DNA of 64,000 nt from Arenimonas sp. (GTDB lineage: Bacteria; Pseudomonadota; Gammaproteobacteria; Xanthomonadales; Xanthomonadaceae): assembly GCF_035312645.1 (NCBI RefSeq), contig NZ_DATGBO010000042.1, forward strand, positions 27,701 to 91,700. The letters run 5' to 3'. Below, in pieces: positions 46,070 to 48,166 of the stretch; the first letter of the stretch is position 1, and each line of letters opens with the position of its first letter. The notes under the pieces were generated by a model. It ran no database searches. It was not told the origin of the DNA and was given only the letters and a program-made list of their open reading frames with translations. A program made the translations under genes and the position numbers.

Positions 46070-48166
46070 TTATGCCGCCAAGCCGTGACTGCGCAGCAAG
46101 GCCTCCGGCTCTGGCTCGCGACCTCGGAACGCGACGAAGCTCTCCAGCGCTGGTCGCGAGCCGCCGACGGCGAGGATTTCGCGACGATACCGCGCGCCGG
46201 TTTCGGCATCGAACACGCCGGCCTCCTCGAATGCTGCGAACGCATCGGCGCTGAGCACTTCCGCCCACAGATAGCTGTAGTAGCCAGCCGCATAGCCGCC
46301 GCTGAAGATGTGCGTGAATGCCTGCGGCGAACGATGCCAGGCCGGCGGCACGATCACCGCGACTTCGTCGCGGACTTGCGCGAGGATTTCCAGCGTACGC
46401 GGCCCGCGCGCGGCATCGAATTCCAGATGCAGGCGGAAATCGAACAGCGCGAATTCCAGCTGTCGCACCAGGAACAGGCCGGCGTGGAAATGCCGGGCCG
46501 CGAGCATCTTCTGATACAGCGCTTCCGGTAGGATTTCACCGCTCTGCCAGTGCCGCGCAAACGCATTGAGCGCCTCGCGCTGCCAGCCGTAGTTCTCCAT
46601 GAACTGGCTGGGCAACTCGACCGCGTCCCACTCCACGCCATTGATGCCGCCGACGCTGGGCCAGCGCACGTCGGTCAGCAGGTGATGCAGGCCGTGACCG
46701 AACTCATGGAACAACGTAAGCACCTCGTTGTGCGTGAGCAAGGATGGCTTGCCGTCGCTCGTTGGCGGCCGCTCCTGCGCATCCTGCGCCCGCGGCACTT
46801 GCCCTTCCATGGGCGGCGAAAAGTTGCAGGTGAGAAACGCGACCGGCTTGCGCGCGTCCGTGCCCTCGCCCAGCGGTGTGCGGCAGATATCCATCCAGGC
46901 GCCGCCGCGCTTGCCGCTGCGCGCGTAGTGATCGAGATAGACGCCGGCACGCACGGAACCGTCGGCGTCGACGAGATCGAAGAACTGCACATCCGGATGC
47001 CAGACATCGACACCTGCGCGCTCGACCATGCGCACGCCGAATATTTTTTCCGTCAGCTCGAACAGGCCGGTCATCACCTGCGGCAAGGGGAAATACGGCT
47101 TGATGTCTTCCTCGGAAAAATCGAAACGGCGCTCGCGCAGTTTCTCGCTGGCGTAGGCCACGTCCCAGGGTTGCAGGTCGGCGATCGCGAGCTCACTGGC
47201 GGCGAAGGCGCGCAGACCGGCGAGTTCGCGTGCTGCGACCGGTCGCGCTTTCGCGGCGAGATCGTGCAGGAATTTCAGCACGCGCTCCGGCGTTCCGGCC
47301 ATCTTGTCGACCAGCGAAAGATGCGCGCTCGAGGCGAAACCGAGCAGCTGTGCACTTTCGTGACGCAAAGCGAGGATCTGGCCGATGCGTGCGGAATTGT
47401 CGTACGCGTGGTCGCCAGGGCCCTGGTCGGAGGCGCGGGTGTTGTAGGCGGTGTAGATTTCCTCGCGCAACGCGCGATCATCGGCGAAAGTCAGGATCGC
47501 CTGCACCACAGGACCCTTGAGCGTCGCCAGCCAACCGTCGACGCGTTTGTCCTTGGCCGCATGTGCGAGCATCGAACGCACCGAATCCGACAATCCGGCG
47601 AGCTCGGCTTCGCTGACGGATCGCGTCCAGGCGTCGGTGGCATCGAGCACGGCTTCCTCGAAACCGGTCGCGACCTTGCTCAGTTCGTTCTGGATGTCAC
47701 GGAAACGCGTGCGCGCCGGCTCTTCCAGCGCCACGCCGGCGAGACGGAAGCCGCGCAGGCTGTCCTCGACCAGAGTCTGCTGCGCGCGCTCGAGATTCGC
47801 GAACGCTGGCGCATTGCGCACCGCCTGCACCGCCTCGAACAACGCGTGATTCTGGCCCAGCGCGCTGCTGTGTTCGGTGATCTTTTCCAGCGCGGCCGAG
47901 TACGCCTCACGCAGGGCCGGTGAATCTTTCACGCCATGCAGATGCGATACCGGCGCGAACACGCGGCCGAGTTTTTCCTCGAGACTTTCCAGCGGCGCGA
48001 CCAGCGCGGCGAAATCGCGCGCCCGCGCATCGGCGGTGAGGTCATCGACCGCGGCCTGATAGTCGGCGAGCACGGAGTCGATGGCGGGGAGGACCTGGTC
48101 GGGCGTGATTGCCGAAAAGGGTGGCAGCTCGCCATCGGCGAGCAAGGGGTTGGCGGTCGTGGTCAT
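46070..48166 (-). CDS. prlC: Oligopeptidase A (M3 metallopeptidase)
   Basis: NPLL, RSGKRGGAWM, LFHEFGHGLHH, WDAVELPSQFMEN, FTHIFSGGYAAGYYSYLWAE. Confidence 0.92.
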   Translation of the reverse strand: MTTTANPLLADGELPPFSAITPDQVLPAIDSVLADYQAAVDDLTADARARDFAALVAPLESLEEKLGRVFAPVSHLHGVKDSPALREAYSAALEKITEHSSALGQNHALFEAVQAVRNAPAFANLERAQQTLVEDSLRGFRLAGVALEEPARTRFRDIQNELSKVATGFEEAVLDATDAWTRSVSEAELAGLSDSVRSMLAHAAKDKRVDGWLATLKGPVVQAILTFADDRALREEIYTAYNTRASDQGPGDHAYDNSARIGQILALRHESAQLLGFASSAHLSLVDKMAGTPERVLKFLHDLAAKARPVAARELAGLRAFAASELAIADLQPWDVAYASEKLRERRFDFSEEDIKPYFPLPQVMTGLFELTEKIFGVRMVERAGVDVWHPDVQFFDLVDADGSVRAGVYLDHYARSGKRGGAWMDICRTPLGEGTDARKPVAFLTCNFSPPMEGQVPRAQDAQERPPTSDGKPSLLTHNEVLTLFHEFGHGLHHLLTDVRWPSVGGINGVEWDAVELPSQFMENYGWQREALNAFARHWQSGEILPEALYQKMLAARHFHAGLFLVRQLEFALFDFRLHLEFDAARGPRTLEILAQVRDEVAVIVPPAWHRSPQAFTHIFSGGYAAGYYSYLWAEVLSADAFAAFEEAGVFDAETGARYRREILAVGGSRPALESFVAFRGREPEPEALLRSHGLAA
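46763..46818 (-). repeat. 56-bp GGA-hairpin element, in frame within prlC (copy 2)
   Basis: 49/56 nt identical to 7266-7321; encodes [18 protein letters not shown] just upstream of the HEFGH motif. Confidence 0.85.

Follow-up and report, generated by a model that had tools for sequence, protein, structure and literature searches.

Why should an oligopeptidase gene and an RNA helicase gene of one bacterium carry nearly the same 56 nucleotides? The question is raised by a 64-kb stretch of the genome of Arenimonas sp. (contig NZ_DATGBO010000042.1; the whole stretch is called the window here), in which positions 46763-46818, within a prlC-like gene, and positions 7266-7321, within rhlB, are alike at 49 of 56 positions, 25 of them in one identical core (CGCTCCTGCGCATCCTGCGCCCGCG on the plus strand). 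The stretch is probably one instance of a mobile mini-element, exactly 51 nt long, that forms hairpins and is not autonomous; it would spread at CCGCC-like sites and via the recombination of filled alleles. A sequence-only reading of the window had taken the repeat for a dispersed mini-element that is selected as RNA and may act as a distributed sponge for CsrA/RsmA proteins. The following sections take up the structure and spread of the element, its gain and loss within genes, and the question of whether it is kept as DNA or as RNA.

A 51-nt unit in two genes and many genomes

The PrlC-like and RhlB-like open reading frames both lie on the minus strand of the window, and both copies of the element are in sense orientation and in the same frame, as had been described. 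The first host encodes an M3 oligopeptidase A (PrlC/OpdA-like) of 698 aa (46070-48166; Pfam PF19310 and PF01432), nearest to the PrlC of Arenimonas, and contains one unit of 51 nt, or 17 codons, at 46768-46818, encoding residues about 453-468 (covariance model match at 46765-46818, 76.5 bits, E = 1.6e-14). The second encodes a DEAD-box RNA helicase of 564 aa (7077-8771; PF00270, PF12300 and PF00271; named RhlB in the source), whose unit, at 7271-7321 (match at 7268-7321, 74.1 bits), falls in the C-terminal Arg/Pro-rich tail. The next-best match to the covariance model in the window reaches 14.5 bits. The exact 25-mer occurs twice in the window and twice in none of 100 dinucleotide-preserving shuffles, which confirms the match first noticed between the two genes.

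Read on the minus strand, hairpin 1 of the prlC copy (46801-46814) is GCCC-AUGGAA-GGGC, with an A-N-GGA-N hexaloop and a C-G closure. An outer stem, GCCGC/GCGGC, surrounds GG, hairpin 2 and a single-stranded AGGA (46768-46796 in all); hairpin 2 is GCGC-AGGAU-GCGC (46777-46789), and a third GGA motif (46773-46775) stands in CAGGAG. In the rhlB copy, also on the minus strand, hairpin 1 (7304-7317) is GCAC-AGGGAC-GUGC, and both GCGC-AGGAU-GCGC and CAGGAG are unchanged. With columns numbered from the 5' end of the element, the differences from prlC to rhlB are C-G to A-U at columns 7/16, C-G to U-A at 24/50, G-C to G-U at 51, and changes at two loop positions. All seven are structure-neutral (compensatory changes in two pairs, a G-C that becomes G-U, and substitutions at both N positions of the A-N-GGA-N loop), and all are non-synonymous, with the fold preserved. 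The sequence-only reading had both hairpins and the CAGGAG motif right, as well as the compensatory pair and the two N-position differences of hairpin 1; the remaining three differences also fit the fold.

At the protein level, the two inserts would have different places. In an AlphaFold2 model of this genome's PrlC (mean pLDDT 79.6), the sole long low-confidence stretch near the active site, residues 452-469 with pLDDT below 50, equals the insert. It lies between a strand (442-449) and the helix bearing the HEFGH motif, and in this model it is probably a disordered loop just before the zinc-binding helix. The distance from the end of the insert to HEFGH (residues 487-491, starting with H487) is 19 residues, and not the 15 or so first estimated. 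In RhlB the insert would extend an unstructured tail, and in RsmH, which carries a further copy in this genome, it would form a C-terminal extension.

A 22-nt core was scanned in 185,579 species genomes, and the family sample was chosen by exact matches to it; the invariance of the core is therefore partly a sampling effect, and the unbiased parts of the sample are the flanks of the 22-mer, the variant copies and the orthologue series. The exact core is present at at least 120 loci in about 100 assemblies from many orders, mostly Gammaproteobacteria, so that the element is indeed dispersed, as proposed. Among the matches listed, 101 are gammaproteobacterial (Lysobacterales 40, Acidiferrobacterales 16, Arenicellales 6, Nevskiales 6, and others), 6 belong to Vulcanimicrobiota, some of them on megabase contigs (up to 2 Mb), and a few to other taxa. 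Cultivated carriers include Rhodanobacter, Thermomonas, Pseudoxanthomonas and Stenotrophobium, and an 11-kb plasmid of Lonsdalea has a further copy in its primase gene; searches of viral contigs and phage records yielded none. Over half of the copies are intergenic. Fourteen of these, with the same orientation, follow the T-run of a terminator by 2-6 nt, and one has the mirrored arrangement (p = 0.001), a pattern that looks like target choice or safe harbour and not like expression.

The unit of 51 nt, or 17 codons, is also the period of the tandem arrays found at four loci (L029, L066, L098, L109). Its 5' part consists of Y-G-M-Y, hairpin 1 (G-N-N-C / A-N-GGA-N / G-N'-N'-C) and a linker, N-A-R-U-G; its 3' part is the outer stem G-N-C-G-C/G-C-G-N'-C enclosing GG, hairpin 2 (GCGC-AGGAU-GCGC) and AGGA. 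Over 100 distinct copies, 98.5% of stem cells are paired, against 89.1% in shuffled data (0 of 500 shuffles reach the observed value), and controls with slid alignments pair at 12-57%. Double changes occur in 10 of the 13 stem pairs. The pairing of the stems is thus kept while the peptide changes, as had been claimed from two copies. The helix of hairpin 1 is 99.3% paired family-wide, with double changes in all four pairs: the two middle pairs are CG 45, UA 43 and GC 9, and AU 53, GC 37 and CG 8 (A7-U16 being the pair in 53% of copies), and 98% of copies have the closing pair C8-G15. Its loop is nearly fixed (A9 100%, G11 100%, G12 98%, A13 99% of 100 copies). In the outer stem, pair 24-50 is CG in 61, UA in 25, GC in 4 and AU in 3. 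Pairs also vary at orthologous sites: across ten genera with the insertion at one S9 peptidase site, pair 24-50 is GC four times, CG four times, AU once and GU once, and at an orthologous PrmA site the stem of hairpin 1 reads GCGC, GUGC or GCAC.

Gain, loss and tolerance within genes

Does the element come and go in its host genes? Among 115 full-length PrlC relatives, 13 are filled, all in the same loop and one with two units, with slight differences in register and variant. On a tree built without the insert columns, the insert requires 12 changes, against 12.5 with shuffled labels, and nearly every carrier has a sister without it. RhlB has the insert in 4 of 120 orthologues and in none of the four closest, and RsmH has an intact tail in 4 of 120, one with two units, and decayed tails in several others (PRAPDAQERP, PRPQDAEERP, RAQERP). 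The comparison of PrlC orthologues that the sequence-only reading had pointed to thus reveals a patchy distribution, and RhlB and RsmH are mostly empty too.

In rhlB the element stands after Pro-Pro, among native PRPPRDPNA repeats. The tail in the window (7300-7390) contains native tandem 27-nt repeats encoding PRPPRDPNA(A/P), and the closest RhlB orthologues have three or four PRPPRDPNA repeats and no element. In one RsmH orthologue (P0126, tail ..PRAQERP), 9 nt are missing, consistent with slippage between direct repeats within the element, GCGCAGGA(T) and GCGCAGGA(G).

The gain in PrlC amounts to 17-18 residues, and recent gains are of 51 nt at the DNA level. Fresh gains are flanked by direct repeats of 5-9 nt at CCGCC (Pro-Pro) sites. 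Filled and empty alleles give CCGCCGGCC/CCGCCCGCC (P0011 vs P0107), CCGCCGC (P0009 vs P0082) and CCGCC (this genome vs P0010). In this genome the left repeat (46812-46816, minus strand) shares bases with the 5' arm of hairpin 1; the right one is at 46764-46768 on the same strand; the insert is thus bounded by direct repeats, as had been noticed, and these read CCGCC. The native PrlC site, CCG CCC AGC GAC GGC AAG CC, resembles the 5' end of the element. Partial units also occur: in alleles P0012 and P0004 a second hairpin 1 comes after a full unit, and P0061 resembles the footprint of a solo hairpin 1. Family-wide, flanking direct repeats of at least 6 nt number 38, against about 20 expected.

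One pair of alleles points to a second route. P0011 (filled, locus L125) and P0060 (empty, locus L126) are 100% identical in nucleotides outside a tract of ~0.6 kb and about 92% identical inside it, and within the tract P0011 is closer to a different group of PrlC alleles. Unless the contigs are chimeric, the insert of P0011 would have travelled by homologous recombination of a gene segment.

A mobile mini-element would insert at CCGCC-like sites by a route that depends on short homology or on the hairpins, would be gained and lost on short time scales, and would spread between related strains when filled alleles move on recombination tracts, as in the one pair above. Its stems and GGA loops may be kept because copying recognises the folded strand, through an enzyme of the host or of the element, or because sense copies bind CsrA/RsmA. 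Any effect on the expression of prlC would then be a by-product and not a demonstrated function. With GC skew as a proxy for the direction of replication, copies show no orientation bias (58 to 43, p = 0.16), which argues against a single-strand (lagging-strand) mechanism of the IS200/IS605 or RAYT type.

How can housekeeping genes bear such insertions? The length is a multiple of three, and 98-100% of copies have no stop in frames +0, +2, -1 and -0 (with T at column 19, stops arise in frame +1 and not in +0); the element can therefore persist in genes. Three frames are in common use, +0, +2 (about 12 other genes) and antisense -1 (about 5 genes), so that what the three best copies of this genome share in frame does not hold for the family as a whole. 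By Pfam, the hosts are housekeeping genes unrelated to one another. Sense hosts encode S9 peptidase, HrpB, HisRS, EngB-type GTPase, PQQ dehydrogenase, DnaG-like primase, GlnE, GatA, iPGM and HmgA, to which PurL is added by sequence inspection only; antisense hosts encode PrmA, GlnA, HemN, E2 acyltransferase and alpha-amylase. Counted by hand from flanks and Pfam-checked hosts, the 32 independent genic sites comprise about 24 in sense and about 8 in antisense orientation (p = 0.007), and the copies in prlC, rhlB, rsmH and mnmA of this genome are all sense. Antisense genic copies, including that of the plasmid primase, are intact. The element includes codons that are rare for genomes with a G+C content at third codon positions (GC3) of about 0.9.

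Mobile DNA or regulatory RNA

The loops of the element fit the consensus for CsrA/RsmA binding, as the sequence-only reading had proposed. The CsrA/RsmE consensus is given as (A/U)CANGGANG(U/A), and the consensus from systematic evolution of ligands by exponential enrichment (SELEX) as RUACARGGAUGU, in those passages of PMC6849547 that cite Dubey 2005 and Schubert 2007. Across 100 copies, C-A-N-GGA-N-G of hairpin 1 matches the former consensus as it is stated there, and many copies read (G)UACA(A/G)GGAUGUAC, which corresponds to the latter. The GGA motifs at columns 11-13 and 35-37 are spaced 24 nt apart, and a third occupies columns 44-46. A CsrA dimer, according to a rule reportedly due to Mercante et al. 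2009, is said to bridge sites about 10-63 nt apart, with an optimum near 18, and the 24-nt spacing is within that range. A sense copy such as that in prlC would offer a CsrA dimer a two-hairpin site with GGA motifs 24 nt apart, and judged by its motifs the element is a plausible CsrA/RsmA site.

Several points weigh against a mobile mini-element whose fold is recognised in copying or by CsrA/RsmA. Across old copies, direct repeats give a weak signal at a fixed offset of 51 nt. The loci revealed neither a mobilising enzyme nor terminal inverted repeats nor an autonomous parent element. The P0011/P0060 mosaic comes from low-coverage metagenome contigs and could be an assembly chimera. Where orthologous sites differ by compensatory changes, another copy may have replaced the first, and selection need not have acted in place. 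The folding energies of this genome's three copies are no better than those of shuffled sequences (z = 0.05-0.6), and thermodynamic stability is therefore no argument. As for CsrA, its binding to the element is inferred from the match to the consensus only, and a tblastn search of this assembly with E. coli CsrA gave a best E of 0.77. In this group, however, csrA normally follows alaS, and alaS here runs off the end of contig C106.

Could the element be kept at the RNA level instead? It would then be a high-affinity two-site CsrA/RsmA module that wires prlC, rhlB and rsmH/ftsL into the Csr/Rsm regulon, or that titrates the protein, a possibility that deserves attention and is nevertheless rather doubtful. 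It draws on the consensus of hairpin 1, including the C-G closure (hairpin 1 being outside the 22-mer used for the search), on the spacing of the GGA motifs with a third in reserve, and on the compensatory stem changes at the S9 peptidase and PrmA sites. A stem selected as RNA should tolerate wobble pairs, however, and among 1300 stem cells G-U and A-C are equally frequent, at 12 each. The preponderance of sense copies among genic sites (about 24 to 8) and the rare codons retained in genomes with GC3 near 0.9 also speak for a role of the transcript, yet about a quarter of genic copies are antisense and intact, in genes as varied as those for PrmA, GlnA, HemN, E2 acyltransferase, alpha-amylase and the plasmid primase, and in the spacers between tandem genes 3 copies are sense and 6 antisense (a crude count from a gene caller that over-calls genes). 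The 14 intergenic copies just past terminator T-runs are likewise at places where little transcript is expected.

Comparison with Csr/Rsm RNAs is similarly divided. In another locus, the first hairpin of the RsmY model can be aligned to hairpin 2 (GCGCAGGAUGCGC) with 16.4 bits (gathering score 57), and this is the best result for the models of Rfam clan CL00106, none of which matches the prlC copy. When the prlC copy (as 401 nt and as 91 nt, E up to 10) and 18 loci were scanned against Rfam, no relevant family appeared, and thus no Csr/Rsm family at threshold. No GacA box (TGTAAG-N6-CTTACA, up to 2 mismatches) was found within 400 nt upstream of 128 copies. In favour of an RNA role, some metagenome-assembled genomes (MAGs) have intergenic arrays of many GGA modules; in this genome, about 5-8 copies are too few for a plausible sponge, and a distributed sponge is accordingly unlikely. 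In rsmH, CAGGAG stands 8 nt upstream of the GTG of ftsL, which also favours this role; against it, RsmH copies decay in several lineages. Unremarkable folding energies add to the case against, and the failure to find csrA in the assembly says little, since the contig ends inside alaS, where csrA would normally follow. Selection as RNA, which the sequence-only reading had inferred, is put in doubt by the equal G-U and A-C counts, the antisense copies (about 8 of 32), the use of three frames, the copies behind terminators and the decay in RsmH.

Alternatively, it may be the target that supplies part of the hairpin. In a guide-type insertion only 42 nt would be mobile, from the loop of hairpin 1 to GAGCG(R); the 5' arm would be target sequence, as the left copy of a duplication of ~9 nt, and the 3' arm would pair with the target, so that each insertion makes a perfect hairpin and covariation is mechanical. 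This account is improbable, to our minds, and we know of no enzyme for it, but it would explain several details. In fresh PrlC pairs the loop begins exactly where the left direct repeat stops; the letters of GGCC (P0011/P0012) and GCCC (this genome, P0009), both rare stems, are those of the native target, CCGCCGGCC and CCGCCC, and family-wide only 8-9% of copies have G at column 6, and only 8-9% C at column 7; and the 5' arm is repeated downstream in L046 (CGCCGTACAT), L010, L021, L070 and L048. Free variation is confined to the two middle pairs of hairpin 1, the remainder of the element being nearly invariant, and the copies behind terminators are oriented 14 to 1. However, the repeat signal at the fixed offset is weak (column 6, 0.41 vs 0.28 expected; column 7, 0.28 vs 0.25), columns 2, 5 and 8 are 97-98% fixed, an oddity if they came from the target, and in P0082 the empty target reads GCCG, against GCCC in the filled allele. 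In P0012 and P0004 the hairpin is duplicated in full (19-24 nt), which resembles partial tandem copies more than a target duplication, and the orientation relative to GC skew (58 to 43) lacks the bias that a single-strand transposase would give.

The two preceding ideas can be combined: a horizontally spreading cassette would install a dimer-bridging CsrA/RsmA site in frame, with the target giving the 5' arm and the element the 3' arm, and each hop would rewire the host gene. This is speculative, and it has a small chance of being correct.

Selection on the peptide, with the unit as a short protein motif such as a degron or binding motif, is very improbable. The three best copies of this genome do share frame and peptide, and the peptide is well kept in filled PrlC orthologues, but the same DNA is read in another frame in about 12 genes and antisense in about 5, more than half of the copies are intergenic, and the differences between prlC and rhlB are non-synonymous, with rare codons, yet keep the fold. 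Chance similarity, or local gene conversion between prlC and rhlB without a wider family, is suggested by the presence of only two copies in a window from a GC-rich, repeat-prone genome, and can hardly be entertained in view of the shuffles, the further copies on other contigs and the loci with the exact 22-mer and like flanks.

Known systems, further copies and significance

Among known systems, a mobile mini-element of this kind has its closest behavioural analogue in the Rickettsia palindromic elements (RPEs), sequences of ~150 bp that stand in frame in unrelated genes, where they are tolerated by the fold, and that have been reported from Rickettsia species only (PMC10969869). The analogy had been drawn from the two copies alone and is apt as regards in-frame insertion into unrelated genes. 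Compared by behaviour, both are hairpin repeats in frame in unrelated housekeeping genes, with a tolerated peptide and presence or absence among orthologues. Differently to RPEs, the element is 51 nt long, spans mainly many orders of Gammaproteobacteria and a few other phyla with a core that is nearly identical everywhere, is also found intergenic and in tandem, and has loops that fit the consensus of an RNA-binding protein.

With CsrB and RsmY/RsmZ the element has in common GGA hairpin loops, a CAGGAUG hairpin like the CsrB repeats and the first RsmY hairpin, and a further single-stranded GGA. It is no small-RNA gene, and it differs from CsrB and RsmX/Y/Z in its position inside open reading frames or behind terminators, in having no GacA box and no Rfam match at threshold, in its antisense copies, and in the conservation of the whole 51 nt and not of the GGA loops alone. 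The TwoAYGGAY RNA motif (RF01731) comprises two adjacent hairpins with GGA-containing loops, as here, and occurs in Gammaproteobacteria and metagenomes, its function being unknown (Weinberg et al., 2010, PMC2864571). The prlC copy has no RF01731 match in a 91-nt search with E up to 10; its loops and those of rhlB are AUGGAA and AGGGAC (only hairpin 1 of the family is sometimes AYGGAY), and hairpin 2 has a 5-nt AGGAU loop within an outer stem.

[quoted passage not shown] REP superfamilies are said to be defined by a GTAG or CGTC head. The element has neither head, its copies in this genome number about 5-8 and are mostly genic, and it is accordingly not a REP; no linked transposase was seen, in loci that were not searched specifically for RAYT genes. 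Nor is it a strict MITE, the consensus ends YGMYG... and ...GCGRCC not being inverted repeats and the loci containing no parent element. As regards the target-site duplication of MITEs, fresh PrlC gains have direct repeats of 7-9 nt, and flank repeats of at least 6 nt are enriched, with a weak signal at the fixed offset. A full-text literature search for the core, its reverse complement and the peptide gave no match, and searches by topic turned up nothing but general papers on CsrA, MITEs, REPs and RPEs; no description of the family was found in Rfam 15 or the searchable literature.

The source assembly (2.83 Mb, 150 contigs, 64% GC) was scanned with a structure descriptor, which found 5 full copies against 0 in a reversed-sequence control; iterated nhmmer added few. 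This genome has about 5-8 copies, most in genes. The third canonical copy (C48:2051-2102) is in the same frame as those in prlC and rhlB and makes up the last 17 codons of RsmH, just before ftsL. Its CAGGAG lies 8 nt upstream of the ftsL start codon, a GTG that overlaps the stop codon of rsmH, and may double as the ftsL Shine-Dalgarno sequence. The same insertion is present in an Arenimonas MAG (L113). A variant subfamily has GGGA/GAGA-GGC-AGGAU-GCC-GGGA/GAGA in place of GG-GCGC-AGGAU-GCGC-AGGA, with a covarying inner stem and the GGA motifs kept. Variant copies lie antisense in a leuA-like gene (C56:9142-9188), at C75:6487-6532 and, as 1.5 tandem units in frame and sense, in mnmA (C15:21667-21750). 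A hybrid at C120:8155-8245, inside a 561-aa open reading frame, fuses half a canonical unit to an inverted piece of the variant subfamily. At C27:6851-6881 a copy stops mid-element at the end of the contig, which suggests that the repeat breaks the assembly. A 23-nt leuC-like stretch (C56:7173-7195, GAAGGATGCGCAGGAGCGGCGCG) with one mismatch to the core was set aside as native LeuC sequence (..AAKDAQERRALDYM..), probably alike by chance.

More complex arrangements occur elsewhere. In the Acidiferrobacterales MAG ES_Gamma_002, several GGA-hairpin modules, among them 51-nt units both whole and partial, make up a composite intergenic repeat of ~400 nt. This repeat is found three times between minus-strand genes that are unrelated (NamZ, multicopper oxidase, SelO), at L012:1490-2000, 4190-4640 and 7220-7602, and also in L028 and L082; it may represent a larger mosaic element or an RNA locus of the sponge type. 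At L044:7750-8000, directly after the rplT terminator, and at L085:5200-5800, the element is found within arrays of a different repeat of ~50 nt (GGCAGAT..TTGCTCC..GCAATATCTGCACTTCC..CCATGGCGGTC), in a BIME-like mosaic. At L026:493-570, ~50 nt from a copy of the element, the alpha-proteobacterial SAM riboswitch model RF00521 scores 38.5 bits, against a threshold of 36; in a gammaproteobacterial MAG this match may be a false positive.

What would such an element mean for its hosts? Insertions of 17 residues could pass for lineage-specific signatures in housekeeping proteins, and the repeats may break assemblies, as at the end of contig C27. Even if only selfish, the element would be one of the smallest mobile elements known to colonise housekeeping coding sequences, across many bacterial orders and almost unchanged, and would raise the questions of what copies 51 nt and how lineages are crossed. 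To our knowledge, no CsrB/RsmZ-type small RNA has been described for Xanthomonadales-type bacteria. Should the element prove to bind CsrA, its transposition would be a natural way of adding genes to a global post-transcriptional regulon, and it might help to explain RsmA antagonists in these bacteria.

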